Below, one piece after another: positions 9,406 to 50,786 of a stretch of DNA of 64,000 nt (position 1 is the stretch's first letter; the number at the start of each line of letters is the position of its first letter). The notes under the pieces are model-generated. The model did not search any database, was not told the origin of the DNA, and saw only the letters and a list, made by a program, of their open reading frames with translations. The translations under genes and the position numbers were made by a program. The stretch comes from an uncultured Alphaproteobacteria bacterium (GTDB taxonomy: Bacteria; Pseudomonadota; Alphaproteobacteria; Rs-D84): positions 20,106 through 84,105 of the forward strand of contig CALXXV010000006.1 of NCBI GenBank assembly GCA_944392775.1. Reading direction: 5' to 3'.

Positions 9406-10404
9406 TTATGCTAAAACATCTTCTAACAGCGTGTTCATATTCATTCTGACTTCTTCCTTATCAGACGCCCAAACAAGTTTACGCATTAAAAATTTATATA
9501 CATCATCCATTGTTAAATTATCAATACCGACCTTTTTTACCAAATGTTTCCATGCCAGTCTAGGATCCGTTAAATGTCCTCTTCCTCTTCCGGGGAACAC
9601 CCACTTTCCATCTTGGGGTAAATTTTCTAATACAACAACCGCAGCATCAGTAAGTGGCTTATTTTTCCACATATAATGATTAAAATCTAAATCCCCCCAT
9701 TGCATAGAAAAAATTTTTGATTTTGGTGCAAAACCATAAACCAACATTAAGAAAGCAGATCTAACCGTTTGATTTTCTTCTTTTTCTATGGCGCGGACCA
9801 ATTTTTGCAATCCGGCTTTATTCAAGGGTCGAACACGACGATTCTGTTCTATTTTTGGCAAATTAACAATTGGATTTTGTTTTATATAACCTAAATCAAC
9901 AGCATATTTAAAAATACTTTGTAATAATTCCTGCATACGCCCTGCTATTGCCTTACCTTCTATATTATTTATTACCGAAACAACATCTTGTGACATAATT
10001 TCTGAAAGGTTTCTATCCAATAAAATTTTTAAATGTCTTTGTATTGCCCGTTCCAATTTATCTTTCGAATATCCTTTACGCTTTACCCGATTCGCCATAT
10101 ATATATTCAAAAACTTTTCAAAAGATATTTTTTTATTACGAACAACCCTTTTCTTAATCGCATTTTCTAAAATTTCCTGTACAGCATTTCTTGCTGTTTC
10201 AATATCAACATCAGGATAATTACCTATTATTATTCTTTTATCTTTACCGTTTATACGCTTTCTGACAAAGAAACTTTTTACACCATGACTAGTTATATAC
10301 AAGCGCAATCTTGGTTCTGATATATCTTGCACGACATCAAATCCAGAACTTGGTACCGGCAAGTTATCTAATATAAACGGGTTAAAAAAGAATTGATGCG
10401 CCAT
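9406..10404 (-). CDS. P4-type integrase-like protein (arm-binding and core-binding domains, degenerate catalytic domain)
   Basis: N-terminal LRLYITSHGVKSF..R.RING...IG.YPDV.I..AR arm-DNA-binding motif, FKYAV..GYI..NP, W.DLDF and WVFP motifs. Catalytic motifs are altered. Confidence 0.75.
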   Translation of the reverse strand: MAHQFFFNPFILDNLPVPSSGFDVVQDISEPRLRLYITSHGVKSFFVRKRINGKDKRIIIGNYPDVDIETARNAVQEILENAIKKRVVRNKKISFEKFLNIYMANRVKRKGYSKDKLERAIQRHLKILLDRNLSEIMSQDVVSVINNIEGKAIAGRMQELLQSIFKYAVDLGYIKQNPIVNLPKIEQNRRVRPLNKAGLQKLVRAIEKEENQTVRSAFLMLVYGFAPKSKIFSMQWGDLDFNHYMWKNKPLTDAAVVVLENLPQDGKWVFPGRGRGHLTDPRLAWKHLVKKVGIDNLTMDDVYKFLMRKLVWASDKEEVRMNMNTLLEDVLA

Positions 10405-14222: not shown

Positions 14223-14248
14223 AAAAAACCACCATATGGTGGTTTTTT
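14223..14248. terminator. Bidirectional terminator ending the fibre operon
   Basis: AAAAAACCACCA-TA-TGGTGGTTTTTT between convergent genes. Confidence 0.8.
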
Positions 14249-15656
14249 ATTCAACCCAGATGGTTGCATAAGTCGTGGCATTTTCACTGCCGACCGGAAT
14301 TTTAACATTACCTTTTGTGACAGAAACCTTACCATCTGCCTGTGAAACCGCTGTGACAACTGCGCCCGTTCCAGAAGAAGTACTATCCAAAGCAGTAATC
14401 TGAGACTTCGTAGCATAAGTATTAACTATGTTATTCCCGTTTGCATCTGCGGTTGCTTTTGCAGCCGTACCAGATGTACTTAACTTACCTGCCAAAGCAG
14501 AATTTATAACCTTATTCTGAACAGGGTTTGTACTTGTACTGCTTAAAGCGCTATCTACTGTTATTGCTGCCGGGATAGAAGGCTTATCAGTTAAATCATT
14601 ATAAGAACCTGATGTCGCAACTTCTGCCAAATCTGCAGTATTAGCCTTTGCATTCAATGAAGTTGTCAAGCCAGATATCTTTGACTGTGCAATTGCTGCC
14701 GAAGAAGAAATATCTGCATTTGTTATTGTACCGTCTGTTATCATAGCACTGCTGACAGTACCTGTCATAACATTACCCGAACCATCCGTAATTAAAACTT
14801 TATTTGCATTCGTAGAGCCCTGTGCTTTTGCAACCTTTGTATTTGCAGCAGATTGCGCAGCGGACGCAACAGACGCAGCGGAATTAGCCGTACTCTGTGC
14901 AGTTTCTACCGCGCTTTCCACAGTTCCCAATTCTGTTTTTGTTGCATAAGTTGTTGTAATAACATTACCCGATGCGTCTTGTGTTGCTTTTGTAGCATTC
15001 GTTGCATTTGTAGCATTAGTCGCACTAGTTGCGGTTGTTGCAGTATCTGCACTTGCTGCACTATTTACTGTGACAATACCGTCTGTTCCGACAGTTATAT
15101 CACCACCACTTTTTACACCACCCAACTTATCAGATGTAGCCGCAGTTAAGACATAACCTTCTGGCAAATCATCAGCGGTAATAAAACCACTATTATTAGT
15201 CAACTGTGAAGTAGTTGTAGGTACAGTAATATTGATAGTGGCCGGTGATGCCGCATTTGCGGTAAACGTACCGACATTGGAACCATTTTTTTGGATTGTA
15301 AGAGTTGCATTATTTACAGTTGGAATATCCGCAGAATCCGCCTTACCTGCCAAAGCAGTTGCGACTGCTTTTTCAGAAGGGTAAGCCGTATCTGTTGCAG
15401 ATGCAGTTGCACGAACAGTTGTAACTTTATTTTTTGTTTCTTCTGCTGTTATACCTTTTGTTGCAGAAACAGTGCTACCACTAGCAGAAACGGAAGTAAC
15501 AACATTACCTGTTCCACTGGTAGAACCACTAATGCTAGACAAACGTCCATCAACCTGTACATCAACATAGTTTTTGGATGCGATATCTGCATTAGCTGTT
15601 CCCATAGCAAGCATTGCTATTAAAGAAACTGCAAAAAGACCTTTTGTATTCATCAT
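14247..15656 (-). CDS. Secreted fibre-like protein D (phage tail-fibre-type modules)
   Basis: Signal peptide ending ANA; DIASKNYVD; tail-fibre-like motifs IPTVNNATLTIQKNG, SQLTNNSGFIT, ATSDKLGGVK, VATSGSYNDLTDKP and VDSALSSTSTNPVQNKVI. The start at MMNTKG is inferred (the track ORF extends to 15689). Confidence 0.75.
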   Translation of the reverse strand: MMNTKGLFAVSLIAMLAMGTANADIASKNYVDVQVDGRLSSISGSTSGTGNVVTSVSASGSTVSATKGITAEETKNKVTTVRATASATDTAYPSEKAVATALAGKADSADIPTVNNATLTIQKNGSNVGTFTANAASPATINITVPTTTSQLTNNSGFITADDLPEGYVLTAATSDKLGGVKSGGDITVGTDGIVTVNSAASADTATTATSATNATNATNATKATQDASGNVITTTYATKTELGTVESAVETAQSTANSAASVASAAQSAANTKVAKAQGSTNANKVLITDGSGNVMTGTVSSAMITDGTITNADISSSAAIAQSKISGLTTSLNAKANTADLAEVATSGSYNDLTDKPSIPAAITVDSALSSTSTNPVQNKVINSALAGKLSTSGTAAKATADANGNNIVNTYATKSQITALDSTSSGTGAVVTAVSQADGKVSVTKGNVKIPVGSENATTYATIWVE

Positions 15657-15769
15657 TTTTATTCTACCTAAAAAACTGTTTCGTTTCACTATCTAAATCG
15701 CAACTCACACAAACTTTTTTTGATGTGCGATATATTTATGAAATACCGCACATCAAGATACCAACAAGA

Positions 15770-16960
15770 TTATCTTGCAACAACTTCCCATTCATAAACA
15801 GAGTTATTATAAGTCAAAACACACTTATTTGTTGGGTTGTCACAATTAGGATCTGTTGGTTTTGGTATTGCTGCCAAAGCCGCTGTCTTTGCTTCTGTTG
15901 CAGTTTGACTTGCTGTATCAGCAGTAGTCTTTGCCTGTGTTGCAGTCTGACTTGCTGTCTCAGCAGTACTCTTTGCCTGTGTTGCAGTCTCTGTTGCAGT
16001 TGTCGCAGCAGTTGTTGCTTCTTCTGCTGCAGCCGTTGCTGCTGCTGCATCAGACTTCGCCTGTGTTGCATCTGTTTTTGCCTGTGCTGCATCAGATTTT
16101 GCTTGTGTTGCATCTGTCGCTGCAGTTCCTGCTTTAGTATTTACTTCATTAATAGCACCAACAACTGTTTTTGCTGTAGTTGCAAGAGTATTATCTGTTT
16201 TATCTTGCTTCAACGCCAAATCTGCATCAACATCTGCAGTTTTTGCATAATCTGCCAAAGCAGCCTGTTGCAAAGCAGAATCTGCCTTACCCAAAGACGC
16301 CTGAACGTCATCTGCCAATTTTGCTTTTGTTACATTTTTATCTGCAATTTTTGCCGTTGTGACAGCGTTTGCATCAATCTCTGCTGCACTTACTGTGTTT
16401 TTTGCTGCCAAAGCGCCCAAATCTGCTGTATTTGCTTTTGCATCCAAAGCAGAATCTACTTCTGTTTTTGTATAAGCATCTGTGATACCATAACCTTGTA
16501 ATGTTGTGGCTTTATCTGCTTTACCTGTTTGTAAACCAGCAACAGTTCCCTGTAATTCTGTAACATCTTCTTGAACGCCAGACACATTACCAGTTACACT
16601 ATCGATAGCATCTGCAACTGCTTTTACAGATGGATATGACGTATCGTTGGTCGTATTATCACTATACTGTGCAGATTGAATCAATGCCTTATCCTGCTTA
16701 CCTGCCAATCCTTCTGTTAATGCAGTCGTTGTCGCATGTGTTGCAGAAGCAGTTTGCAAAGCATCAATTTCACCTTCTGCAGTTGTTAAACGTTCTCCCT
16801 GACCTGTAACAGTTGAAGTCAAAGCAGTTACGCTTTCTGTTGTTGCTCTTGTACCGACCTGATCGTCAACATAAGTTTTTGATGCGATTTCTGCATTTGC
16901 AGCCCCGACAGTGACAACTGTCAATAATGTTGCAAATATACCTGCTGTTAGTTTTTTCAT
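15770..16960 (-). CDS. Secreted fibre-like protein C (coiled coil, tail-fibre repeats)
   Basis: Signal peptide ending ANA; EIASKTYVDD; TTLQGYGITDAYTKTEVD; VTTAKIADKNVTKAKLA; LATTAKTVVGAINEV; Ala/Thr heptads; strong AGGAAGGA RBS. Confidence 0.8.
   Translation of the reverse strand: MKKLTAGIFATLLTVVTVGAANAEIASKTYVDDQVGTRATTESVTALTSTVTGQGERLTTAEGEIDALQTASATHATTTALTEGLAGKQDKALIQSAQYSDNTTNDTSYPSVKAVADAIDSVTGNVSGVQEDVTELQGTVAGLQTGKADKATTLQGYGITDAYTKTEVDSALDAKANTADLGALAAKNTVSAAEIDANAVTTAKIADKNVTKAKLADDVQASLGKADSALQQAALADYAKTADVDADLALKQDKTDNTLATTAKTVVGAINEVNTKAGTAATDATQAKSDAAQAKTDATQAKSDAAAATAAAEEATTAATTATETATQAKSTAETASQTATQAKTTADTASQTATEAKTAALAAIPKPTDPNCDNPTNKCVLTYNNSVYEWEVVAR
15880..16125 (-). repeat. 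Degenerate 21-bp (heptad) repeats within fibre protein C
   Basis: ATQAKSD/AAQAKTD/ATQAKSD...ATQAKST/AETASQT/ATQAKTT/ADTASQT. Boundaries are approximate. Confidence 0.7.
16704..16793. repeat. 90-bp perfect direct repeat, copy 1 (copy 2 at 17439-17528)
   Basis: Nucleotide-identical segment encoding RLTTAEGEIDALQTASATHATTTALTEGLA in two different genes. Confidence 0.9.
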
Positions 16961-16990
16961 TTTCCTTCCTTTTTTAGTTTAGTTAGTTTT

Positions 16991-18919
16991 TTATTGTGCC
17001 GGCTCTGTTACATTTACCCATTTGAACTGCCCGTCTGTTCCAACAGACAACACACACAAACCGGAATCCGCCATACATTCACCTTCTGGTTGAGGCACCG
17101 CCAGTTCCACAATCTTTTCATTTGTTTCCAGTTTTGTATAAACGTCAGACACGTTTGCTTTACCGGAAATTTCACTAACTAAATCGTCACTTAACTTTTC
17201 TTGCGTCACCGCATTATCAGCAATTTTATCAGTTGTTACCGCACCATTTTCTAACTTGCTGCCGGCAATTGAATTATCATTTATATTGTCTGGATTAACT
17301 GGTAAGCCAGTATCTGATAATTCTGTTATTTTCTTATTTGTCCATTCTACGATTGCACCAACAGATGGGTATACAGTCGGCGAACTTTGATTATCAGCAC
17401 CAATGGTTGTTGCCTTATTTGCAACATTTTCTTTCAACGCCAATCCTTCTGTTAATGCAGTCGTTGTCGCATGTGTTGCAGAAGCAGTTTGCAAAGCATC
17501 AATTTCACCTTCTGCAGTTGTTAAACGTGTACCCTGACTTGTAACTGTTCCTTCCAATGTTGCAACAGATTCTGCACTTGCTTTGTCTGCAATATCTGCC
17601 TGTAATTGTTCAACATCTGCTGCCAAACCTGTTTCTGGGTCAGTAATTTGTTCTACTTGCTGTGTTATATTCGTTATATTTTCTGTAATACTTTCAACAG
17701 CACTTGCATCCGCTTTTGCACCTAAAGCAGTACGAACTGCAACCGCAGACGGGTATTGATCCGCAGTAGATTCTGCCGTTATTTCTTGTATTTTATTATC
17801 TTTATCTTCTTTTTTCGCCAAGTCTGCCGCATCTGCTTTTTGACTTACAGTTTCTGCCAAAGATGATACAGAACTCTCCAAACCGATAACGGCTTCTTGT
17901 GCAGCCGCCACATCTGTAACAGCCTGTTCTACCTGTGCGCCAAGACCAGTTTCTTCGTTATTAATTGTATCACCTAACTGCGTCACCTGTTGTGTCACAT
18001 TTGTAATATTCTGATTTATTTCTTCGATATCAGTTGTTGTGACATAATTTTCCAACGCACTTGTATCTGCCTTACCCTGCAACGCCGTATGAACTGCTGC
18101 CGCAGACGGATATTGTTCTGATGTAGATGATGCATCAATAGTCTGCGTTTTATTATTTTTGTCTTCTTTGCCTGCAATAGTTGTACTTAAATCTTGGCTC
18201 AACTTATCTTCTGTTACCGCCTCATCAGCGATCTTATCAGTTGTCACTGCGCCATTTTCCAACTTACTACCTGCAATAGAATTATCATTTATATTATCTG
18301 GATTAACTGGTAAGCCCGTATCCGATAATTCTGTTATTTTCTTATTTGTCCATTCTACGATTGCACCAACTGATGGGTATGCGGTAGAAGAGCTTTGATT
18401 ATCCGCACCAATAGTTGTCGCCTTATTATCTTTATCTTCTTTTGTTGCAAGGTCTGCCGCATCTGCTTTCTGTTGGACCGATGTTGATAAAGAAGAAACC
18501 GATCCCTGTAATGTATCTATTTCACCTTCTGCTGTTGTCAAACGTTGAGCTTGGCTTGCAACATCGCCCCCCAATGTCGTTACGGTCTCTTGTATCGTAT
18601 CAACAGCATCCTTTGCACTGGAAGCATCTGTAACCGCTTTATCAACCTGTGCACCAAGACCTGTTTCTTCATTATTAATCGTATTACCTAACTGCGTCAC
18701 CTGCTGTGTCACAGTAGTAACATTTTCTGTTATTTGATTAACAGTTTCCTGTTTGGCATAATTCTGTTCTACATTTTCTAATATAGTTGTTTCTTTATCA
18801 TCAACATATTTTTGACTAGCAATTCTAACAGGGTCACCGCTGGTTGCAGCATTGACATTGCCAACCCCCAGCAACAATGATGCTAAAAAACCAGAAAAAA
18901 CTAAATTCATTTTCTTCAT
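16991..18919 (-). CDS. Secreted fibre-like protein B with internal duplications
   Basis: Signal peptide ending VNA; RIASQKYVDD; repeated KEDKxNK...YPS modules; NGAVTTDKIAD repeats; Cys-pair C-terminus. Confidence 0.8.
   Translation of the reverse strand: MKKMNLVFSGFLASLLLGVGNVNAATSGDPVRIASQKYVDDKETTILENVEQNYAKQETVNQITENVTTVTQQVTQLGNTINNEETGLGAQVDKAVTDASSAKDAVDTIQETVTTLGGDVASQAQRLTTAEGEIDTLQGSVSSLSTSVQQKADAADLATKEDKDNKATTIGADNQSSSTAYPSVGAIVEWTNKKITELSDTGLPVNPDNINDNSIAGSKLENGAVTTDKIADEAVTEDKLSQDLSTTIAGKEDKNNKTQTIDASSTSEQYPSAAAVHTALQGKADTSALENYVTTTDIEEINQNITNVTQQVTQLGDTINNEETGLGAQVEQAVTDVAAAQEAVIGLESSVSSLAETVSQKADAADLAKKEDKDNKIQEITAESTADQYPSAVAVRTALGAKADASAVESITENITNITQQVEQITDPETGLAADVEQLQADIADKASAESVATLEGTVTSQGTRLTTAEGEIDALQTASATHATTTALTEGLALKENVANKATTIGADNQSSPTVYPSVGAIVEWTNKKITELSDTGLPVNPDNINDNSIAGSKLENGAVTTDKIADNAVTQEKLSDDLVSEISGKANVSDVYTKLETNEKIVELAVPQPEGECMADSGLCVLSVGTDGQFKWVNVTEPAQ
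17439..17528. repeat. 90-bp perfect direct repeat, copy 2
   Basis: Identical to 16704-16793. Confidence 0.9.
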
Positions 18920-18931
18920 TGTTTAAACCCC

Positions 18932-21028
18932 TTAAAACACTATCTCATACCAAACTTTGTCACCGTTACTATCAACACCTAAAACTGCATCCGTTCCTGC
19001 ACCAACCATGCTTACGGCAGCATCTGCTTTATCCAAAGACGCTTGTACATCTGCCGCTAATTTTGTACGAGCAATAGCCGCATCATCTGCAACATCGTCA
19101 TTTGAAATCTTTGATTTAGTAGCCAAAGTACCTAAATCTGCTGTATTTGCTTTTGTTGCCAACTGTTCATCAACATAAGTTGTATCAGCCTTACCTTCTA
19201 TAGCCCCAACCGCAGTATTAACCGTCTGTTCCATCTGAGTAATTTTGTTATTCATTTCTTCAAAATTACCATCAGTTGCCATACCATCAGTCTTGGTTTT
19301 TAATTCATTAACCGCACCAACCAAGTTTTGTGCAGTAGTTGTCAAAGCACCTTCCCCAACAGTTGTTTTTAATGTACTTATATTTGAAGTATTTGTTTGA
19401 ACTTTTCCTTCTAACTCGGTCAAATCTGCATCCGTCGCCAAGCCTTCTACTTTGGAATCAACTTCTGTTTTTGTATAAGCATCAGTAATACCATATCCAG
19501 CAAGAGTAGTGGCCTTATCTGCTTTCGAAGCCACATCCAATGCAGCAGAATCCGCTTTTTCTTGTGCCGCAGTCGCAGCCGCTTGCGCTGCTTGCGCTGC
19601 ATCACTTGCACCACTTGCCAATTCTTTCGCTTCATCCGCCGCTGTCTTTGCTGCATCAGCCGTGGTTTTAGCCGTATCAGCAGTAGTTTTAACAGTTTCT
19701 ACTTCACCCGAAACAGCATTTGCAATTGCTTGCGCCGCCTCCGCAGTTGTTTTTGCAGCACCAGCAGTTTCCACTGCCGCCGTCGCCGCAAGACCTGCAT
19801 TATCCGCAGCCACCCCAATCGTATCTACTTTTGAAGAAAGCGCATCTACAACTGTTGCGTCAGCCTTTGAATCCAATGCAGTCTTATCTGCTTTTTCAGC
19901 CAACCCAGCTTCTACATCAACAGTTTTCGCATAATCCTTTAAAGCTTCTTGCATATCACCGGCAGCAACATCGGCAACAAGGTCATTTACTTCTGTTTTA
20001 TTATAAACTTCGGATTTAGTATAAACATCAGCAACATTTGCCTTACCCGCCAAACCCGTGGTTAATTCTGCGCTTGTAGCCAAACCATCAGTTGCTTCAC
20101 TAATAGCAGTTTGCACACCAACTGTTGTGGCATAACCTGCCAAAGCATCACTATCCAACTTTCCTGACAATTCTTCTTTTGTCGCATAAGTCGCATTTGC
20201 AGCTTCTGTTTTTACATAATCCGCCAACTCTGCCTTTGTAGCATAAACATCCGCCAAATCACTTACAGCCTGTATTATACTATCTTCCATATCATCCTTT
20301 GTCGGATAATTGGTCAGATCAACTTCAGCTACATCCCCCTGCTCACCTTGCGGCCCTTGAGGCCCTGTAATATCTTCAATAGAAATCAAATTATTCCAAC
20401 TAGAATCCCCAACATGACGCCAAGCTATATAACCATCAACATTCCCCATTTCAATCCCCAGCTCGCCTTCGCCAACAATTTCGGCCAAAGCCTCACCCAA
20501 CGGATTAAGATTTACAAAGATTTCATCATTTTCAATAGATATATAATCATCCCCCGTTCCAAGAATATTTTGCTTATTATCCTGAACGTCTTTAACATCA
20601 TCACCCAATCTTGTAACATCTTCACGAACAGCTTCAATCTGCTTTTCTAAATCACTAGCAACCCCCGGATCCATAGAACCATCAGAAGAACCACCAGACG
20701 TATTGCCCCCAGGTTTCTGAGAAATTATTGTACTACCACCACTAACAGATGTACCACCACCCAAATATTTTCCGATAGACAAACGAGGCGTAGTAGTAGT
20801 TACACGTCCGGAAGACGACGAAGAAGAACTGGCTGTAGGCGAAATACGAACAGTACCACCGCGCGCAGTTGCACTTGAGGCACCACTACTAGAACTAGCA
20901 CTTGAAACACTGTCATAAGTACCCGCCCCACCCAAAGTACGAACCGTAGATGCTGCATAAGCACCCGAAACGGTTGTGCATAACACACAAATTATCGCAA
21001 GTCTTGAAATTTTAAAATCTTTTTTCAT
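18932..21028 (-). CDS. Secreted fibre-like protein A (Ser/Gly linker, short collagen triplet run, tail-fibre repeats)
   Basis: Signal peptide ending AYA; IAWRHVGDSSWNNLISIEDITGPQGPQGEQG; YATKAEL repeats; TTLAGYGITDAYTKTEVD; LTTTAQNLVGAVNELK. Confidence 0.8.
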   Translation of the reverse strand: MKKDFKISRLAIICVLCTTVSGAYAASTVRTLGGAGTYDSVSSASSSSGASSATARGGTVRISPTASSSSSSSGRVTTTTPRLSIGKYLGGGTSVSGGSTIISQKPGGNTSGGSSDGSMDPGVASDLEKQIEAVREDVTRLGDDVKDVQDNKQNILGTGDDYISIENDEIFVNLNPLGEALAEIVGEGELGIEMGNVDGYIAWRHVGDSSWNNLISIEDITGPQGPQGEQGDVAEVDLTNYPTKDDMEDSIIQAVSDLADVYATKAELADYVKTEAANATYATKEELSGKLDSDALAGYATTVGVQTAISEATDGLATSAELTTGLAGKANVADVYTKSEVYNKTEVNDLVADVAAGDMQEALKDYAKTVDVEAGLAEKADKTALDSKADATVVDALSSKVDTIGVAADNAGLAATAAVETAGAAKTTAEAAQAIANAVSGEVETVKTTADTAKTTADAAKTAADEAKELASGASDAAQAAQAAATAAQEKADSAALDVASKADKATTLAGYGITDAYTKTEVDSKVEGLATDADLTELEGKVQTNTSNISTLKTTVGEGALTTTAQNLVGAVNELKTKTDGMATDGNFEEMNNKITQMEQTVNTAVGAIEGKADTTYVDEQLATKANTADLGTLATKSKISNDDVADDAAIARTKLAADVQASLDKADAAVSMVGAGTDAVLGVDSNGDKVWYEIVF

Positions 21029-21049: not shown

Positions 21050-21079
21050 ATAATATCACATTTATGCGAATCGGGTCAA
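21050..21079 (-). promoter_or_regulatory. Promoter of the fibre operon with embedded GANTC
   Basis: The minus strand reads TTGACC-CGATTCG-CATAAATGTGA-TATTAT (18-nt spacer, TG extension). Confidence 0.55.
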
Positions 21080-21092
21080 TAGTTTTCCTATG

Positions 21093-21824
21093 CTAAAATT
21101 CATACCTTAAACCAATTGATATGGAATTGTCTAAAATCAAACCGATATCATTTTCTATATACGCTTCATATATAGTTGGATCACCTGTATTTTTATATTG
21201 GAAATATCTTGTTTGTTTTGTTCCATTAAAACCAGACAAACGATATCGAAGGTCTAAAACAAAATTATCATCTAACTTATAAGAATACCCCAACATTACA
21301 CCAACCATCGGAGAAATACCTTCTTCTGTTCTACCACCACTAAGGAAAATATCCGAATCATATTTTGTAATAGGCATCGCAGCACCAACACCAAGCCCCA
21401 AATACACACCATTTGTAAAATCATAATAACCGTTTACCAACGCATAAGGAGCAGATAAAGAAAACTCTATTCCTGCATCTTTATCAACGAATTGACCGAT
21501 ATACCCAACTTCTATTTCACCGCGCCAAAAATAACCAAATTTATGCCCTACAGATAAATTACCACCAAAAACGGGCTCAAAAGAAAATTTATCAGACTCA
21601 AATTCAGAAAGCACACCAAGATAGTCCGAATCGTACTTATTTTCCCAATTTAAAAAACTAAGCTCTGCCCGACCAGTTAAATACCAACCAGTTTTTGCTT
21701 TATCTGTATAATCATAAGTAACAACGTACCCACCATTAGCATCACGAGTAAGATAACTAGGTGCAGCTATCGCCCCCGTTGAAACCATTCCTAACAATAA
21801 AAATAAAGAAAAAATTTTTTTCAT
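21093..21824 (-). CDS. Outer-membrane beta-barrel protein (8-stranded opacity/OmpW-like superfamily)
   Basis: Signal peptide; RGEIEVGY, LVNGYYDF, YLGLGVG, LDLRYR; C-terminal IGLRYEF. Confidence 0.85.
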   Translation of the reverse strand: MKKIFSLFLLLGMVSTGAIAAPSYLTRDANGGYVVTYDYTDKAKTGWYLTGRAELSFLNWENKYDSDYLGVLSEFESDKFSFEPVFGGNLSVGHKFGYFWRGEIEVGYIGQFVDKDAGIEFSLSAPYALVNGYYDFTNGVYLGLGVGAAMPITKYDSDIFLSGGRTEEGISPMVGVMLGYSYKLDDNFVLDLRYRLSGFNGTKQTRYFQYKNTGDPTIYEAYIENDIGLILDNSISIGLRYEF

Positions 21825-40410: not shown

Positions 40411-42390
40411 ATGACAGAAAAAAACACACATTCTTATGATGCATCTGATATTCAAGTACTAGAAGGTCTAGAACCTGTTCGTTTACGTCCTGGTATGTAC
40501 ATTGGTGGGACAGACGAAAAAGCATGGCATCATCTTCCAGTTGAAATAATGGATAATTCAATTGACGAAGCAGTTGCAGGCTTTGCAAAGAAAATTATTG
40601 TTACCTTAATTGATGCTAAAACTATCGAAATTACAGATGACGGTCGTGGTATTCCTGTAGACGAACATCCTAAATATCCGGGTAAATCTGCTCTGGAAGT
40701 TATTTTAACGACCTTACATTCTGGTGGTAAATTTAATAACAATGTATATAAAACAAGTGGTGGCTTACATGGTGTCGGAAGTTCTGTTGTGAACGCATTG
40801 ACATCAGAAATGATAGTTACAATATCACGTGACGGTTATGAATGGAAACAGACTTTTTCACGTGGCAAACCAACCAGTAAAATGATTCGCGGTGAACCGA
40901 CAAAAAACCACGGAACAAAAATCAGATTTACCATTGATGATGAAATTTTTGGCGAAAGCGCGGTATTCAAACCCATAAAAATTTATAGAATGGCACGTGC
41001 CAAGTCATTTTTGTCGAAAGGTGTCCGTATTGAATGGCACTGTAACCCAAGTCTTCTAACAGAAGATATGAACATACCTGCAGACACGACATTTTATTAT
41101 CCGAATGGGGTTGCAGACTTTTTAGAAGAAAAAACCAAGGACAAGCCGCGTATTCTTCCTAAAATATTTAGTGGTTGCGTTGATTTTCCTGATGATGTAG
41201 GACGCATAGAATGGGCATTAACATTTTTAACAGATGAAAATGGCGCTGCATCTGACGATGGGTTCTTTTCATCTTATTGTAACACAATTGCAACAATAGA
41301 CGGTGGGACACATGAAACAGGTTTTAAATCAGCCATAACCAAAGGAATAAAAGCATACGGAGAAAAAGTAAACAATAAAGCAGCAACATCTATAATCGGG
41401 GACGACGTATTTGACTCTGTTGCAGCGATAGTATCTATATTTTACAAAACGCCACAATTTTTAGGTCAAACCAAAGAAAAGTTATCTAATCCGGAAATTG
41501 CAAGATATACAGAAAATGCCCTACGTGATCCATGGGATATATTTTTAGCTTCAGATCCCAAAACGGCAAACGCTTTACTTGATTTTGTTATAAATCTTGC
41601 AAACGCCAGAATTAAAACCAAGCAAGTAAAAGATATTGCAAGGAAAACCCCGACTAAACGTATAAGAATGCCTGCTAAACTTGCCGATTGTTCTAAACAC
41701 GGTGTCGAAGGTACGGAATTATTTATTGTAGAAGGTGAATCTGCTGGTGGCACTGCGAAACAAGCACGTGACCGTGCAACCCAAGCAATTATGCCACTAC
41801 GTGGTAAAGTATTAAACGTAATATCAAATTCAGATGAACGATTTGGCGCTAATAAAGAATTAAATGAATTGATTGATATAATTGGTGCAGGAACAGCAAA
41901 AGATTGGGATGAAAGTAAATTAAGATATGAAAAAATAATTGTAATGACAGATGCTGATGTTGACGGCAGTCATATTGCATCGTTACTAATGGCATTTTTC
42001 TATCAGCACATGCCACAATTAATTTATGGCGGTCATTTATATTTGTCTTGTCCACCATTATATAAATTGACATGTGGTACAGAATCTATTTATGTTGATA
42101 CAGATGAAGAACTAGAAGAACTAAAAAATAATAAATATAAAAATAAAAAAATAGAAATATCACGTTTCAAAGGACTTGGTGAAATGATGCCGAATCAGTT
42201 AAAAGAAACGACAATGTCACCCAAGACACGTCGTTTGATTCGTGTTGATCTGCCACCACGAACGGACGAAGGTGCAGAAGATACTGAAAAGACTCGTACA
42301 ATTGTATCTGAATTGATGGGCAAGAAACCAGAATTCAGATTTAAGTTCATAACAGAACACGCCCAGTTTGTGAAAGATTTATTTGTATAA
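40411..42390 (+). CDS. parE: DNA topoisomerase IV subunit B
   Basis: GGLHGVG, VEGESA, PLRGK, DADVDG and KGLGEMMP.QLKETTM; 659 aa with no gyrase-B insert. Confidence 0.88.
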   Translation: MTEKNTHSYDASDIQVLEGLEPVRLRPGMYIGGTDEKAWHHLPVEIMDNSIDEAVAGFAKKIIVTLIDAKTIEITDDGRGIPVDEHPKYPGKSALEVILTTLHSGGKFNNNVYKTSGGLHGVGSSVVNALTSEMIVTISRDGYEWKQTFSRGKPTSKMIRGEPTKNHGTKIRFTIDDEIFGESAVFKPIKIYRMARAKSFLSKGVRIEWHCNPSLLTEDMNIPADTTFYYPNGVADFLEEKTKDKPRILPKIFSGCVDFPDDVGRIEWALTFLTDENGAASDDGFFSSYCNTIATIDGGTHETGFKSAITKGIKAYGEKVNNKAATSIIGDDVFDSVAAIVSIFYKTPQFLGQTKEKLSNPEIARYTENALRDPWDIFLASDPKTANALLDFVINLANARIKTKQVKDIARKTPTKRIRMPAKLADCSKHGVEGTELFIVEGESAGGTAKQARDRATQAIMPLRGKVLNVISNSDERFGANKELNELIDIIGAGTAKDWDESKLRYEKIIVMTDADVDGSHIASLLMAFFYQHMPQLIYGGHLYLSCPPLYKLTCGTESIYVDTDEELEELKNNKYKNKKIEISRFKGLGEMMPNQLKETTMSPKTRRLIRVDLPPRTDEGAEDTEKTRTIVSELMGKKPEFRFKFITEHAQFVKDLFV

Positions 42391-42540
42391 TAAAAATTTT
42401 TTTAAACATAATTCGCAAAATTTCTATTACACAAACATATAATAGAATTTATTCCGTCTGTACAAAACAATAAAAACATGGCAAAATCCTTACCCCAAAA
42501 TTTGATATATTTGATATAAATTAATAGAGGAAAGAAAAAT

Positions 42541-42972
42541 ATGAAACCAACAAAAAAAAGAAAAAACACATACGTAATTCAACAAAATGTTTTTGGAGGA
42601 TATTCTGTATTTGAATTATGCCAAAGCACCCCACTTGCAGTTGTAGAAATAAATGGCAAAAGCCTAGAGCAAAAGACAGGATGGTTAAACAGCCTAGATT
42701 TTCCAAATCCTGGGGCTATTGATATGATAAAATCATTTAAGGTTCTGGAACCGGTAATGGGAAAGAAATTAGCCAGCACAATAGTTGAATATTTGGACAA
42801 AGAAACAGGTGAACCAGTAGCAATGTTGTTTCCTACAAATGATATTATGTATCGCGAAGATTTACCGGATTTTTTAAATCGTTTAAACCACATGTCAAGG
42901 AAAGACTTACATTATCAGATGATGAAACGGGCAAGATATTTAAACCTTTTACAAAAAAATAAACAAAAATAA
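42541..42972 (+). CDS. Hypothetical protein
   Basis: 143-aa ORF with a GAGGA RBS and downstream terminator. Confidence 0.65.
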   Translation: MKPTKKRKNTYVIQQNVFGGYSVFELCQSTPLAVVEINGKSLEQKTGWLNSLDFPNPGAIDMIKSFKVLEPVMGKKLASTIVEYLDKETGEPVAMLFPTNDIMYREDLPDFLNRLNHMSRKDLHYQMMKRARYLNLLQKNKQK

Positions 42973-42998
42973 AAAATACCGGTAAAACCGGTATTTTT
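42972..42998. terminator. Bidirectional terminator
   Basis: AAAAATACCGG-TAAAA-CCGGTATTTTT. Confidence 0.8.
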
Positions 42999-43014
42999 GT
43001 TTTCCTCATCTAGT

Positions 43015-44379
43015 TTAATGGATACCGACTTGGAACTGGTCACCCCACCCTGCTACGACTTGACCGCCGACAGTGCATTGGATATCTTCAAAGCCATTTT
43101 CTACCTGATTCTTTTTTACTACGCTACTAGTTATCAAACCACCGGCAGTACCTAAAACAACCCCTGCTACAGAATCAGAAATCAAACGAGCTGTATTAAA
43201 CTTTCCTTCTTCCGTTTTCCAATTACTTTTTTCAAAGCCAGAAGAAATTTTATCTAATTCTGCAACAGCAGAACTTATTTTTGTTTTAGATTCATTGTTT
43301 GCAATTCTTTCTGCATCTAATTTTTGTATTTCATTAATAATATTTTGCAGTTCTTCAAACATTGCATTAAAAGTAGTACCATTTTTTTGATCACCTTCAC
43401 AATAATCCAGTATACTAATTATCAAAGCAACGATTTTTTCATTTGAAGCATAAGTATTTTGCCATACTTTAACCTTAGCAATTTTTGTTGCATCACACTC
43501 GTATTGATCTTGCGTTACATTTACAACATCCTCACATTGTGAAGTAGCAGGATTAAATTTTTGGTCAGGATTTTGCTGACATTTACATACCCCATTTTCC
43601 CATTTTGCAAGAGATGCAGGGACATAACAGCAAGCCTCACATTCAGATTTCTGACTGCCAGTCAACCCACCGCATCTTTGTTGTACACAAGATAACTTTG
43701 GTTGTTCTGCAATAATTTCTTCTTTATTTTCTATTTGTTTACTTTCTTCGTTAACTACTTCTACACAGGTTTTGCCGTTCCATTCACGTTCTTTACCATC
43801 AGAAGACTTTACACAACTACATTTATCTTGGAACCATACCGTTCCTTCTCCTTTTAAACAAGCTAATTTTTCTGGATTTATATAACAGAACCATCTATTT
43901 CTACCATTATTTTCAGACCTTTGATATACAGGCTTATTAAAAGTGTCATTCATATCAACAGCTAAATTTTCCAATGCGGGAGTTCGTTTCAAATCTTCAT
44001 AAAAATTATCTTCACATTCTATGAAAGAAAAAGCTTCCCATTTATCACCAAAGTATGCCGTACACCAATAAAGCGTCTCTGGTTTATTTTGCTGTTCATC
44101 CCATGCATGACCACTAGGTGCAAGTATAGCCGTATTGTGCTTACACCCTTGTTCTTCGTCACATTCCCACATCAAATTATCTAACGGGAAACTTCTTTCT
44201 CCATTATTTTCTCTTTCAACAGCATTTAAATAATCAGATGTACTCTGATATACGAATTCGTCATCTCCTGGGGCCTGAATACCTTGAAAAGAAATCTGCC
44301 TTTCTCCACACATCGCCAAACAAAAATCTGGAATCATACCTAACATAAAAAAGATAGGAAACAATAAAAACTTTTTCAT
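43015..44379 (-). CDS. Secreted Cys-rich protein with C-terminal glycine-zipper-like segment
   Basis: Signal peptide, many Cys, coiled coil and SVAGVVLGTAGGLIT. Confidence 0.7.
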   Translation of the reverse strand: MKKFLLFPIFFMLGMIPDFCLAMCGERQISFQGIQAPGDDEFVYQSTSDYLNAVERENNGERSFPLDNLMWECDEEQGCKHNTAILAPSGHAWDEQQNKPETLYWCTAYFGDKWEAFSFIECEDNFYEDLKRTPALENLAVDMNDTFNKPVYQRSENNGRNRWFCYINPEKLACLKGEGTVWFQDKCSCVKSSDGKEREWNGKTCVEVVNEESKQIENKEEIIAEQPKLSCVQQRCGGLTGSQKSECEACCYVPASLAKWENGVCKCQQNPDQKFNPATSQCEDVVNVTQDQYECDATKIAKVKVWQNTYASNEKIVALIISILDYCEGDQKNGTTFNAMFEELQNIINEIQKLDAERIANNESKTKISSAVAELDKISSGFEKSNWKTEEGKFNTARLISDSVAGVVLGTAGGLITSSVVKKNQVENGFEDIQCTVGGQVVAGWGDQFQVGIH

Positions 44380-44493
44380 TTCTCCCCCATTTGGCTGATG
44401 TCAGTCTTTTAATTAAGCAAAATTGCCTACACCATTTTTCTTTATTTTATCATATTTCGCGGGGACTGCCAATAACTAAATATTTAAATCAGC

Positions 44494-45777
44494 TTATCTG
44501 CATTCTTCTATCATTTGATTTATCTGTGCAGCCAAGACCAAATCTGTTTGTTTCATTTTTTCAACTTGTGATATCGCATACAAAACTGTTGCATGATCAC
44601 GATCACCACACACGCGACCAATTTCTGTCAAAGACATATTTGTTGCAACTTTTAATACAGCCATCATCATCTGACGTGCTAATACAACACCACGGCTACG
44701 CCCCTTACCGCATACTGCATCATATGCTACACCCAACTTTTCACACATAGATTTTACCATTGCAATTGGCGTTTTAGCTTTCTGCAAAGTATCAGCCAAT
44801 AAACGTTGTGCAATTTCTAATGTTACTTTTTCGCCCATCAATTCAGAATAAGCTTTTATTTTTGTTGCGACACCAGACAACAAATGACCATCTCCTGCAA
44901 TGCGCATAGATAAAGACAATGCAACATCTTCTGCAACACCTGCACGTGTTAACATTACGCGTTTTACATTTGCGGTTGGCGCAACAACATCTGCAACCAA
45001 ACCAGAAGCGAATAAAGACTGCATACGACGATCAAATCCGGATAAATTACTTGGTGCCACATTCGCCGTTAAAACAACATTTTTTCCTGCCGCACGCAAA
45101 TCTACAATCAATTGCATAAATTCTTCACATGTTGCACGTTTACCAGCCAAAGTTTGAACATCATCTAAAATAAATGTATCACAATTACGGCAGAAGTCTT
45201 TAAAAGCAAAAATTGATTTATCGTGCAAACTACGTGTAAATTCTGCAACGAACTGCCCACCAGACATTTTAATTGTGCGGCCATTTGCACTTGCTTCAAT
45301 GCAATCTGCCAGCAAAGATTTCCCGCATCCTGCTGGTCCATAAATAAACAGCGGAGAAAAAGAAACCTGACCCGCTGCTATTTTTTTACATGCAGATAAT
45401 ACAAACGCATTTTCTTCACAAGATATAAAAGCATCAAAAACATTTTTATCTGCTTCTACAACAGTTTGCGCAACTGGTGCATATACCTGAACATTATTAT
45501 CATTTGCAACTGGTCCAGAACAAATATTTGCACCACGAACAGATATTTTTAAATTCAATCCGAAATCAGCTGCAACAGCCGATAAAACATTTTTGTGAAC
45601 ACTACCGATAAAATCAGCAGAGAACTGATTTTGTGCAACCAAAACTAAAGTATCACCACAAATATCAAATTGTAAAGGAGCAATCCAAGAAGAATAATTT
45701 GCGACATCCATTTTTGCGGCTATGGCCCCCTTGATTTGTTCCAAGTCAGTCATCATTTTTTTCGCCGCTACCTGCAT
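44494..45777 (-). CDS. dnaA: DnaA-family replication initiator (divergent)
   Basis: Domain I (Y.SWI..L), PLFIYGPAGCGKS, DDVQ and domain IV SLTEIG...RDHATVLYA. Strong RBS before ATG 45777. Confidence 0.85.
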   Translation of the reverse strand: MQVAAKKMMTDLEQIKGAIAAKMDVANYSSWIAPLQFDICGDTLVLVAQNQFSADFIGSVHKNVLSAVAADFGLNLKISVRGANICSGPVANDNNVQVYAPVAQTVVEADKNVFDAFISCEENAFVLSACKKIAAGQVSFSPLFIYGPAGCGKSLLADCIEASANGRTIKMSGGQFVAEFTRSLHDKSIFAFKDFCRNCDTFILDDVQTLAGKRATCEEFMQLIVDLRAAGKNVVLTANVAPSNLSGFDRRMQSLFASGLVADVVAPTANVKRVMLTRAGVAEDVALSLSMRIAGDGHLLSGVATKIKAYSELMGEKVTLEIAQRLLADTLQKAKTPIAMVKSMCEKLGVAYDAVCGKGRSRGVVLARQMMMAVLKVATNMSLTEIGRVCGDRDHATVLYAISQVEKMKQTDLVLAAQINQMIEECR

Positions 45778-46098
45778 GTCGTTTCTCCTTTCCTTCCTTA
45801 AAAGAGTTTCCTGCCCGCGCAAGAGTATAAAAAACACCTGCACATAAATGCTAAACATTATTTTATCTTAAACAGATTTAATAATGATTCAGTTTTTATG
45901 TTTACCTACTTTAATACTCTCTCGCTTTGGTGATTGAGTGTTTCCTCAATCGTTTTGGATACGTCTGTAAAGTTATAAGATAAATTAAACTTTGCAACTA
46001 ATTGTTAAACGATTTTTTAAGATTTATTTTTTGACAACGATTCGTTTTTTTACTAGTTTTCTGCGCATTGTATATACACTGTATATACATATATTTTT

Positions 46099-49123: not shown

Positions 49124-50752
49124 TTAATTCAAGGGTGCGCCCCAATGCTGCTGAATATTACGTTCCGCATCCATTGGGCTGATTAATACTTGTGGTGTTA
49201 AAATTACAACCAATACATCTCTTGTAGCAGCAGTTTCACGAGATCCGGACAACGCCATAAAATCGGGATCACCTAAACCATAACGCGTATCATTATTTGT
49301 CTGTTTTTCAAAACCTGAAACGACTAACATCTGACCAGACTCCATAATAACTTCTTGCATAAAACTACGTTCTTCTACTTCTGGTAATTGTAACGTTACT
49401 TCACCAATCGTCTGAGTAGACATCTTTAACAATTCACGAATGGACATTCTAAACAACAATAAAATCTTGCCATTTTCTAAAACATTAGGCAATAATTGCA
49501 TAGAAAATCCAGTTTCTAAATCATCTTGATCAACAGTACTTGATTCAACCGTTGTAAAGTTACGCGATTCAAAACGTTTAATATAACCAGTCGACTTCGT
49601 GTTATTTACAGGTGCAACACGATTACTACGTGTTGTAACCCCAACATTTGTAACCAAAGAAACCTTACCCTGTTTTGCCAAAGCCTGAATCAAAGCATTA
49701 CTACCTGCCGCACCAGACAAAGAACCATTCTTAATTTGATCTTGAGTATAAGCCCCGGCAATTTCTTCACCATTTTCATAATGCGTAGCTCCGGTAAGAG
49801 CAGATACAGTATTTGATAAAACCGCAATATTCATAGAACTAGCTTCCGTTGTAGCTAAATTATTTTTAGGATTAGCAACAATATTTAATCCAGATGCAGA
49901 GTTTATAGCTGCTGCTAAATTTAAACCGAAAGCCGAATCATTAGAAATAGAAACTTGCAAAACTTTTACATCAATTGTTACCAACTGAGATAAACGTTTA
50001 TTTTGACGTGCAATATAATCACCAACACGAGCCAAAACGGATGGCGGTGCAGTAACAGTTATTGTTCCCAAGCTACGCGATACAGTAAAATCAGAATTAT
50101 CATTATCTCCGATTATTGTCGCTATAGCATTTTCAATTTCATCCCATTCTTTTAACGTAGATTCTAATGAAACCTGATTACCGTCATCTGTATTTACTGC
50201 CGTCTGATAAGACACATCTGTTCCTAATGCATATAAAGTAAATGTTTTCGTTTCTGTTTCATAAAAAACAATAGCTTTTTTATCGTAATACCACAACAAA
50301 TCTAAATCTGTTGCTATTTGAGATAACAATCCAGATAATTTTCCTGTATAAGCAATATTTATCGTTTTTTTCAATTTATCTGCATCAACTTGGCTATCTA
50401 TCTTTACAGGTATATTTGTAATAGATGTTATATTGTTTGCTAAAACCTGCAAAGTAACGGGTTCGTCTAAAAGAATTGTAATACCTGTATCTGTTTCAAA
50501 CTGAGAAGGCAGATTATTTCTATGTTCTAAAAGTGTAGAAGATGCCCCTAACCAAACCCCCTCAGACATAGAAACAGTATCGCCACTTGCAACTTTTGCT
50601 CTTGGATTTTTTGCCATTTCAAATGCATCATAAGCATTTATAAAATCTTGATCGACAGACGCTGCAACCTTTGCCGACTCTTCTTTTGCACATCCCGTTA
50701 TTAAAACAGAAGAAATTCCGCATAAAACAAAAAATTTAAATGGGTTCATCAT
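49124..50752 (-). CDS. Type IVb pilus lipoprotein secretin (PilN/BfpB/TcpC-like)
   Basis: Lipobox ITGC; Y.G.LSGLL..IA, G.ITVTA.PS.L..V..YI, ALAKQGKV, TGFSM.LLP, SGQ.LV.SGFE and LV..LTP. Confidence 0.85.
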   Translation of the reverse strand: MMNPFKFFVLCGISSVLITGCAKEESAKVAASVDQDFINAYDAFEMAKNPRAKVASGDTVSMSEGVWLGASSTLLEHRNNLPSQFETDTGITILLDEPVTLQVLANNITSITNIPVKIDSQVDADKLKKTINIAYTGKLSGLLSQIATDLDLLWYYDKKAIVFYETETKTFTLYALGTDVSYQTAVNTDDGNQVSLESTLKEWDEIENAIATIIGDNDNSDFTVSRSLGTITVTAPPSVLARVGDYIARQNKRLSQLVTIDVKVLQVSISNDSAFGLNLAAAINSASGLNIVANPKNNLATTEASSMNIAVLSNTVSALTGATHYENGEEIAGAYTQDQIKNGSLSGAAGSNALIQALAKQGKVSLVTNVGVTTRSNRVAPVNNTKSTGYIKRFESRNFTTVESSTVDQDDLETGFSMQLLPNVLENGKILLLFRMSIRELLKMSTQTIGEVTLQLPEVEERSFMQEVIMESGQMLVVSGFEKQTNNDTRYGLGDPDFMALSGSRETAATRDVLVVILTPQVLISPMDAERNIQQHWGAPLN

Positions 50753-50786
50753 CTATCTTCTCCTCTGGCACAAAAATATTTAAGCC

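Follow-up and report, generated by a model that had tools for sequence, protein, structure and literature searches.

A row of four genes in the window (the whole 64,000-nucleotide stretch of DNA analysed, from an uncultured alphaproteobacterium) appears to be a chromosomal operon specific to one lineage of gut Alphaproteobacteria with small genomes, which would encode a segmented surface fibre composed of a base, extenders and a cap. We give this reading a probability of about one half. The middles of the proteins are shuffled coiled-coil, collagen-like and phage-fibre-like modules, and their conserved ends would join the rods head to tail. We found no description of the operon in the literature searched.

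The ORF list confirms the four co-oriented genes that an earlier note on this DNA had placed in one row. They lie on the minus strand and encode FibA (18932-21028; 698 residues), FibB (16991-18919; 642 residues), FibC (15770-16960; 396 residues) and FibD (14247-15656; 469 residues). The longest reading frame of FibD (14247-15689) gives 480 residues from a GTG start; because an identical 469-residue database protein (P0003) begins at the ATG at 15656, FibD most likely has 469 residues, and with this start the intergenic gaps are 12, 30 and 113 bp. Directly upstream of FibA lies the gene of a small outer-membrane β-barrel protein (21093-21824, minus strand) of 243 residues with a signal peptide and the C-terminal residues RYEF. 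The promoter that had been placed between these two genes (21050-21079, minus strand; TTGACC, 18 nt, TATTAT, with TG) is indeed the best match in the region, with 10 of 12 consensus positions, but promoter-like sites are not enriched over shuffled sequence (22 found, 21.2 expected), so that it stands as a consensus match only. Likewise, the proposed terminator (14223-14248, minus strand) can be read directly in the sequence as a hairpin followed by a T-run just past the FibD stop codon, but does not appear in the list of an automated terminator scanner. As for the flanks, Pfam identifies LepA, GNAT, RbfA, DedA/VTT, Pal/OmpA and FtsE, with no prophage, which upholds the cellular setting claimed before except at the FtsX position, where the ORF has no Pfam match. 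Relatives keep the fibre genes at this position, between the barrel gene and dedA/rbfA/lepA, and together with the housekeeping flanks this agrees with a locus outside any prophage. An integrase-like gene is found about 4 kb from the fibre operon, in relatives at the same place beside lepA. A shufflon or invertible segment, suggested by this gene, was rejected as the operon contains no inverted repeats.

Export was judged by a heuristic analysis of the n-, h- and c-regions (K/R n-region, hydrophobic core and AxA-type site). FibA to FibD and the upstream barrel protein all show a K/R n-region and a hydrophobic core with a 10-residue Kyte-Doolittle maximum of 2.2-2.8, and the AxA-type cleavage sites among them read AYA↓A, VNA↓A, ANA↓E and ANA↓D. 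This pattern fits the AxA signal peptides attributed earlier to all four fibre proteins, and the signal peptide is kept in 113 of 120 FibD homologues. Export of FibA to FibD via Sec is thus supported by these features. The sole cysteines of mature FibB- and FibC-type proteins are one C-x5-7-C pair ahead of the C-terminal hairpin, which in combination with the signal peptides suggests folding outside the cytoplasm. Neither the Pfam search nor the signal-peptide analysis revealed a membrane anchor, a lipobox or an autotransporter domain in any of the four proteins. The YadA-type C-terminal anchor (PF03895), already said to be absent, has no match in the four proteins at E ≤ 1 and none in the whole genome, while a control genome did match. 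A linkage to peptidoglycan through an N-terminal Ala-Asp motif, as reportedly described in work on Brucella, was rejected, being at odds with the mature N-termini predicted here.

By their sequences, the fibre proteins have conserved ends and mosaic middles. FibB, FibC and FibD start right after the cleavage site with the motif IASxxYVD (I motif; 18800-18823, 16865-16891 and 15561-15587, respectively). The C-termini of FibA, FibB and FibC are Trp hairpins, which in FibB (16994-17131) and FibC (15773-15910) come after a putative disulfide loop with the only two mature cysteines, and FibD has a conserved, phage-like ending (IPVGSxxATTYATIWVE; 14250-14309). Between these ends, the FibB shaft is internally duplicated (residues 111-253 versus 443-589) and the FibC shaft is an Ala/Thr-rich coiled coil. 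Among 267 proteins, the I motif was found 205 times at the N-terminus and the strict Trp hairpin 46 times at the C-terminus, with no internal occurrence of either. The I motif is kept in 116 of 120 FibD homologues, and the N-terminal conservation of FibD orthologues stops after about 12 residues, where unrelated variable shafts begin. FibD-type proteins without the motif are seen in L017, L023, L025 and L130, which speaks against the docking proposed below. A motif scan of this genome confines the end motifs to the four fibre genes, and the same scan and tblastn found no paralogues of FibA to FibD elsewhere in it. The foldon of T4 fibritin is a C-terminal trimerisation cap, and its likeness to the hairpin is an analogy; with a hairpin-domain profile as query, no chain in the PDB scored below E 2.2.

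FibA consists of a signal peptide, an Arg-motif region, a coiled coil, a small α/β domain, a short collagen-like run, a mosaic shaft and the Trp hairpin. Its N-terminus lacks the I motif. Mature residues 1-90 (20684-20953) are rich in Ser, Thr and Gly and carry three conserved Arg motifs (SVRxLGGxGTY, RGGSxRVxP and PRLSIGxYL), a region unique to FibA among the four proteins, in whose alignment V4, R5, R31, R57, L58, S59, G61 and L64 are invariant. AlphaFold2 models residues 1-59 and 61-90 as disordered (pLDDT < 50). A profile of this region matches 45 of 48 other genomes of the genus, mostly once per genome, and none of 298 genomes from other families of Alphaproteobacteria. Further downstream, residues 188-233 match phrog_19976, a tail assembly protein (E 2.1e-10), and the collagen-like run (20330-20365) comprises four Gly-X-Y triplets with a W...W motif before them. 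Foldseek gave no match of the N-terminal model to viral structures at E ≤ 0.001; the highest of the weak rows belonged to collagen-like or tail-fibre proteins.

As judged by profile and database matches, the phage likeness of the fibre proteins is genuine yet local. Every phage-fibre motif listed in the earlier note can be read in the ORF translations. FibA, FibB and FibC have PHROGs matches of 40-130 residues (E 2e-10 to 7e-3). FibD has none, and its parts occur in 170 IMG/VR stretches, with the best segments being 60-88% identical over about 50-80 residues; in deposited phage genomes, FibD gave three weak records and FibC gave none. The sampled viral genes that share FibD modules lie beside baseplate genes and have no signal peptides, and four of the seven match tail or tail-fibre PHROGs. 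In the ESM Atlas the clusters nearest to FibD are viral, with scores of 0.83-0.85 that are under the 0.9 level and count as leads only. A cluster look-up gave no named cluster. Against Pfam and NCBIfam, none of the four proteins reaches the cut-off of any family; Peptidase_S74 has no match, and no PDB chain is matched by sequence at E ≤ 0.01. Taken together, the claim of phage tail-fibre modules holds for short stretches, but the conserved ends other than that of FibD were not found in the viral loci scanned.

The fibre proteins are probably three-stranded, a state that the earlier note had proposed. Collagen-like runs of at least four Gly-X-Y triplets, which imply trimeric rods, are present in 20 of 136 fibre proteins and reach up to 38 triplets in orthologues; FibA of the window has four consecutive triplets. 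We predicted a complex of the last 77 residues of FibC with the first 77 mature residues of FibD, each in three copies. The runs scored 0.65, 0.52 and 0.65 (median 0.65) and the best of three controls 0.41, a margin of +0.24 that is thin against the +0.20 needed. Among solved complexes, 58 of 80 attain this mark, as do 2 of 110 mismatched pairs, a calibration that is only rough for own alignments and multi-copy jobs. The partners reach pLDDT values of 90 or more, and agreement between the runs covers 94% of contacts or more. Three FibD N-termini are predicted to be seated on the FibC C-terminal hairpins, with FibD residues 1-7 facing residues 60, 62, 64 and 73-77 of the FibC segment. On the FibC side, this predicted interface contains E73, which is invariant, and R77, which is nearly so; on the FibD side it contains the conserved I2, A3, S4 and Y7. 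Replacing the hairpin partner lowers the score to 0.00, and the control at 0.41 had an unrelated partner; the predictor may stack two trimeric rods end to end by default. Overall, this single prediction lends support to the multi-subunit appendage that had been offered as one option.

The modelled fold, the signal peptide and the C-terminal aromatic residue indicate that the protein encoded upstream of FibA is a small OmpA-TM/OmpW/Opa-like outer-membrane β-barrel. Its AlphaFold2 model has a mean pLDDT of 89.5, and the best Foldseek matches in the PDB are the OmpA transmembrane domain, OprG/OmpW, NspA and Ail (E 1.6e-8 to 1e-6; probability 1.00; TM 0.52-0.66 by target length), with no Pfam family found at E ≤ 1. 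The barrel is present in 45 of 46 other genomes of the genus that were searched. One relative (G002, 96% complete) keeps the barrel, although fibre genes are absent from the site and its genome gives no match to FibA, which shows that the barrel is independent of the fibres. The barrel protein is small, separate from the fibre proteins and not a translocator; no translocation route across the outer membrane, nor an anchor in it, was identified.

The first gene after the barrel is of the FibA type in 37 of 41 loci. Among the 29 loci that reach dedA/rbfA/lepA, 16 have four fibre genes and 20 end in a FibD-type gene, a conservation of order that could be simple orthology. Contigs of related strains skip or replace blocks within the fibre genes, e.g. 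from 14648 to 14929 in three runs; these contigs come from four sequencing runs, which probably represent DNA and are silent on transcription. Dispersed genes in another genome (G019) were considered as alternative tips and proved to be several extender-type copies.

We propose that FibA would be the base, in view of its unique N-terminal region with three Arg motifs that is present once per genome. FibB and FibC, which combine a docking motif at the N-terminus with a disulfide-stapled Trp hairpin at the C-terminus, would be extenders, and FibD, which has the docking motif and a different, phage-like C-terminus, would be the cap. The N-terminal motif, freed by signal-peptide cleavage, would dock on the hairpin cap at the C-terminus of the trimer before it. 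We infer surface display, anchoring and an adhesive function, by which the fibre would mediate contact with partner cells, and the variable middles may change specificity or antigenicity. More tentatively, and at less than even odds, the operon may represent a new kind of appendage that is neither pilus nor autotransporter, in which Sec-exported trimeric rods dock head to tail outside the cytoplasm, the base is tethered by the Arg motifs of its disordered region, possibly to the barrel, and the extenders, which carry both ends, may also polymerise, so that fibre length and composition could vary.

Alternatively, the four proteins might be independent surface fibres, each a homotrimer anchored by its N-terminus to a common element, with the hairpin and the FibD ending as trimerisation caps, a reading that we consider possible although doubtful. 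Its model would be the mosaic adhesive trimer (MAT) fibres of Bdellovibrio bacteriovorus (Caulton et al. 2024, PMC10769870). According to that paper, these have a conserved N-terminus and a shuffled, variable remainder, as do the Fib proteins, and both are chromosomal, signal-peptide-bearing, phage-tail-fibre-like mosaics in a contact-dependent bacterium. The Trp-hairpin domain also ends P0207, a phage-like giant of 3352 residues without signal peptide, which fits a plain trimerisation cap, and the dispersed extender-type genes of G019 and the control score of 0.41 point the same way. However, in MATs the signal peptide is followed at once by a conserved β-rich domain of about 130 residues (PMC10769870, section 10), whereas the Fib N-termini, compared with this domain by description only, are a 9-14-residue motif (FibB to FibD) or a disordered region (FibA). 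The MAT tip is C-terminal, variable and often behind an S74 chaperone-protease, while the Fib C-termini are conserved, no S74 domain was found in the Fib proteins, and the fibre genes here form one ordered operon. A short motif followed by a variable shaft leaves no folded anchor domain, FibA has no such motif at all, and the motif is predicted to sit on the hairpin cap, with the score lost upon exchange of the hairpin partner.

Release of the proteins from the cell, for example as phage decoys or loose extracellular matrix, would agree with the negative searches for an anchor, lipobox or autotransporter domain and with modules common to phage fibres. We regard it as improbable, since a conserved single-copy N-terminal region of FibA beside the gene of an outer-membrane protein is then hard to explain and terminus-specific motifs indicate assembly. 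Even less probable are structural coiled coils of the envelope, i.e. Lpp-like spacers confined to the periplasm, for which speak a weak alanine-zipper similarity (PF11839, E 0.0015, below cut-off), Sec export that by itself gets only to the periplasm and the fact that no dedicated outer-membrane translocator was identified. At the usual rise per residue of rod-like sequence, 373-673 mature residues would be far longer than the width of the periplasm, strain-level module swapping and phage receptor-binding-type modules fit an exposed structure, and the relative that lost all fibre genes makes an essential envelope role unlikely. Least likely are fibres of a phage-derived particle (prophage remnant or domesticated particle), which would account for the phage-fibre-like modules and the integrase-like gene nearby, but phage particles assemble within the cytoplasm whereas signal peptides and the disulfide pair imply folding outside it, and the housekeeping flanks, the empty tblastn search with the four proteins elsewhere in the genome, the constant place of the integrase-like gene beside lepA and the lack of inverted repeats all stand against it.

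The segmented fibre has parallels in known systems. The long tail fibre of phage T4 is built from gp34, gp35, gp36 and gp37, trimeric rods in which the distal N-terminus joins the proximal C-terminus, and here too four gene products encoded in order would give a segmented fibre. T4 fibres, however, are built in the cytoplasm with chaperones and on a baseplate, whereas the Fib proteins are Sec-exported, have a disulfide loop and would attach to a cell; no sequence similarity between them and T4 proteins was seen. From phage tail fibres in general the Fib genes differ by their signal peptides and their place outside a virion module. Type Vc autotransporters (YadA, BadA, SadA) similarly combine long trimeric coiled-coil stalks with inserted modules, Sec export and recombining repeats, but the Fib proteins and their genome lack the YadA-type anchor, and the barrel is a separate protein, OmpA-TM/OmpW-like by fold. 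Chaperone-usher and type V pili consist of anchor, stalk and tip subunits joined by docking of terminal peptides. As in the proposed fibre, one subunit has no donor end, another no acceptor end, and the extenders have both; in contrast to trimeric rods, pilus subunits are monomeric Ig-like folds that use strand exchange and an usher or lipoprotein pathway.

The bacteria concerned are common in animal and human guts and have genomes of less than 1 Mb. According to one genomic study, they lack both a respiratory chain and standard nutrient transporters (PMC12306168). They therefore probably rely on contact with other cells, and the fibre operon is the leading candidate for the contact organ. It would be a case in which a cell has put parts of phage fibres to use on its own surface, which is otherwise documented, as far as we found, only for Bdellovibrio. 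If the docking is true, it would represent a simple new way of building a long extracellular fibre from exported trimers, and would yield a pair of small, testable and reusable docking modules.

The operon comprises four co-oriented genes on the reverse strand that we named FibA (698 aa, 18932-21028), FibB (642 aa, 16991-18919), FibC (396 aa, 15770-16960) and FibD (open reading frame at 14247-15689); the proposed roles are base, two extenders and cap. An identical protein of 469 aa on record (P0003) makes the ATG at 15656 the most likely start of FibD. Sizes, orientation and intergenic gaps (12, 30 and 113 bp) agree with the earlier note. On the same strand and 64 bp upstream of FibA lies a gene for a small outer-membrane β-barrel protein of 243 aa (21093-21824), hereafter the barrel. 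By a heuristic signal-peptide analysis, all five proteins have a K/R-containing n-region, then a hydrophobic core and a site of the AxA type, which supports the signal peptides claimed for the four fibre proteins. A hairpin and a T-run are visible 3' of FibD, as expected from the terminator noted there. The proposed promoter fared less well: the site at 21079-21050 on the reverse strand is the best consensus match of the region, but such promoter-like sites are as frequent in the region as in shuffles (22 versus 21.2).

Pfam identified LepA, GNAT, RbfA, DedA/VTT, Pal/OmpA and FtsE in the near flanks, and FabF-like, YceG, TolB, aldolase, AsmA-family and integrase-like genes lie farther out. With these housekeeping genes and no virion gene among the flanking genes examined, the surroundings are cellular rather than phage, as the earlier note had stated. 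The integrase-like gene (9406-10404, reverse strand) carries Arm DNA-binding and Phage_int_M domains, and no catalytic domain was matched at the threshold used. Since several relatives have a similar open reading frame starting MAHQFFFNP next to lepA or close by (e.g. loci L016, L018, L020, L034 and L035), this gene looks fixed, not mobile. Between the integrase-like gene and lepA, three relatives' loci (L017:1-1969, L018 and L020) carry one to five tandem small open reading frames of about 115-160 aa that end in ...FW.KF...K. The genes gyrB and dnaA lie at 40411-45858, about 20-25 kb from the operon, which places the locus near a probable replication origin.

The source genome (860 kb, 13 contigs) is 96% complete. 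Of 46 other genus genomes, 45 have the barrel gene, as do three of five genomes from other genera of the family. Synteny in relatives, which the earlier note had named as a check, is conserved: in a table of 41 loci (the window and 40 loci of relatives), a FibA-type gene directly follows the barrel in 37. In 29 of the 41 loci dedA/rbfA/lepA is reached; 16 of these contain four fibre genes, while one locus each contains none, one and seven, two contain two, three contain three, two contain five and three contain six. The last fibre gene is of the FibD type in 20 of the 29. The barrel of one genus member, which is 96% complete (G002, locus L034), directly adjoins dedA; fibre genes are missing at the site, and no FibA-type match was found anywhere in that assembly.

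The fibre proteins are conserved at their ends and mosaic in between. FibB, FibC and FibD share the motif (I/V)(A/P)SxxYV(D/N) within 1-9 residues after the cleavage site (the I motif). The C-terminus of FibA, FibB and FibC is a short hairpin in which a Leu, a Trp and a Glu are invariant (the Trp hairpin). A C-x5-7-C pair precedes the hairpin in FibB/FibC-type proteins, and as these are the sole cysteines of the mature protein, the pair would fit a disulfide formed outside the cytoplasm. Among 267 proteins the I motif was N-terminal 205 times and the strict Trp hairpin C-terminal 46 times, and neither occurred internally. A motif scan of this genome confined the end motifs to the four Fib genes, and tblastn found no Fib paralogues elsewhere in it. 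Among 8000 candidates scored, 3509 are homologues of FibD at E<=1e-3; the 120 listed are 284-718 aa long, and 113 of them keep the signal peptide, 116 the N-terminal motif and all but a few the ending …IPVGSxxATxYAxIWV(E/Q). Beyond about 12 conserved N-terminal residues, orthologues split into unrelated shafts, collagen-like ones among them.

The N-terminus of FibA, unlike that of FibB-D, carries three conserved Arg-containing motifs across about 90 Ser/Thr/Gly-rich residues. AlphaFold2 predicts this region to be disordered (pLDDT below 50); a helix and a small α/β domain come next. A profile of the FibA N-terminus matched 45 of 48 other genus genomes, nearly always once each. Outside the genus it matched 5 of 17 further genera of this family, and it had no match in 298 genomes of other alphaproteobacterial families.

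A search of 1.84 billion proteins with a profile of the hairpin domain gave 360 cluster representatives at E<=1e-3, and nearly all of the matches lie at the very end of the protein. The best 150 of these include 93 proteins with both the I motif and a signal peptide, a further 18 whose signal peptide goes with a variant I motif as judged by eye, and four of the FibA type; the remaining 35 are devoid of a signal-peptide-like start, most being fragment-like and four probable false positives. One genome (G019, loci L170-L174) has four or more nearly identical genes of the extender type, whose products carry a variant motif at the N-terminus (SIVSSGFLDEKL) and end in the Trp hairpin. Their spread over separate short contigs suggests either that they expanded recently or that repeats broke the assembly.

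The earlier note had described the protein bodies as mosaics of phage tail-fibre motifs, a claim that stands for short stretches only. Every Pfam and NCBIfam family stayed below its cut-off on the fibre proteins. In PHROGs, short stretches of FibA (residues 188-233; phrog_19976, E 2.1e-10), FibB (phrog_28766, E 2.2e-7) and FibC (phrog_2012, E 2.3e-5) match tail or tail-fibre families, and FibD matches none. FibD has modules in common with 170 IMG/VR stretches, mainly at its residues 325-415 (best segments 60-88% identity over about 50-80 residues), and FibB with one; deposited phage genomes yielded only three weak records for FibD and zero for FibC. The module-bearing genes of six inspected viral loci lack a signal peptide and are set among tail genes, one neighbour being a baseplate wedge subunit, and four of seven viral module-bearing genes match tail or tail-fibre PHROGs. 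Across 81 viral loci scanned, the FibD-type ending occurs in five open reading frames, and the I motif and the Trp hairpin are absent. The phage likeness is thus genuine, yet modular and local.

Variation was also evident within the operon. Direct DNA repeats occur within FibB (282 nt, 82% identity), between FibC and FibB (144 nt, 85%) and between FibC and FibA (71 nt, 83%), and no inverted repeats were found in the operon. In contigs of related strains from four public runs, blocks inside the fibre genes are skipped or replaced. Contigs from other metagenomes show this for 14648-14929 in FibD (three runs) and 17861-18624 in FibB (one run), which amounts to cassette differences at the strain level.

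Of 136 fibre proteins from the 41 loci, 20 contain collagen-like runs of four or more Gly-X-Y triplets; a FibA orthologue has as many as 38 triplets and a FibD orthologue 24. As collagen helices are three-stranded, the proteins of this family are very probably trimers. The I motif is missing from the first protein and the hairpin from the last, and the proteins between them carry both, which suggested head-to-tail docking. We therefore predicted a complex of three C-terminal FibC segments and three N-terminal segments of mature FibD, all 77 residues long, using separate alignments. The scores were 0.65, 0.52 and 0.65, versus 0.41 and 0.00 when the partner of the FibC segment was replaced and 0.00 when the FibC segment was replaced; in the calibration, 58 of 80 solved complexes but just 2 of 110 mismatched pairs attained this mark, counts that are only roughly valid for such a job. 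In the model, the partner has a pLDDT of 90 or more, and contacts agree to at least 94% between runs. FibD residues 1-7 pack on residues 60, 62, 64 and 73-77 of the FibC segment, i.e. the two hairpin strands with the invariant Glu and a near-invariant Arg. The prediction supports a junction between the FibC C-terminus and the FibD N-terminus by a thin margin, and the coaxial stacking of the two rods may be a model default.

The hairpin also terminates a phage-like protein of 3352 aa (P0207, phrog_26249) with CHAP and Peptidase_C39-like domains and without a signal peptide, whose C-terminus consists of an alanine zipper and a Cys-loop Trp hairpin as in FibB and FibC. Its source may be a phage that infects these bacteria, and its ending indicates that the domain can also act as a plain C-terminal cap. 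The main rival explanation, that the four proteins form four independent fibres, seems less likely to us. We consider a segmented surface fibre the best reading of the operon, with a probability of roughly one half.

The barrel model (pLDDT 89.5) resembles 8-stranded barrels, among them OprG/OmpW, NspA, Ail and the transmembrane domain of OmpA; its likeness to autotransporter translocators is lower. Judged from this fold, the barrel could serve as an anchor and is unlikely to be a channel. The genome encodes BamA, two TolC-like proteins and classical autotransporter barrels, and a genome search found no YadA anchor. A single secretin (542 aa, PF00263) was found in it; its gene and that of a TcpQ-like protein just upstream lie at 49124-51713 on the reverse strand, near plsY and dprA; a PilB/GspE-like ATPase adjoining a PilC/GspF-like platform protein is encoded elsewhere on the same contig. 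The genome thus encodes a type of channel through which folded proteins pass in other bacteria.

The mosaic adhesive trimer (MAT) family of Bdellovibrio bacteriovorus is the closest described system and shares its idea with the Fib operon, whereas two defining MAT features, an N-domain of ~130 aa rich in β-structure and a variable C-terminal tip, are not those of the Fib proteins (PMC10769870). We found no description of the operon in the literature on Enterousia/Rs-D84, on "mosaic adhesive trimer" (by title all on predatory bacteria) or on tail fiber-like proteins with signal peptide and outer membrane; the genomic description among the first of these makes no mention of adhesin, fiber, tail or secretion in its main text (PMC12306168). 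Taken together, this is a genuine, conserved and undescribed operon of predicted exported, very probably trimeric fibre proteins, and this analysis contributes the logic of the termini, a putative disulfide pair, collagen-like runs as evidence of trimers, a proposed base region present in single copy and the prediction of a junction.
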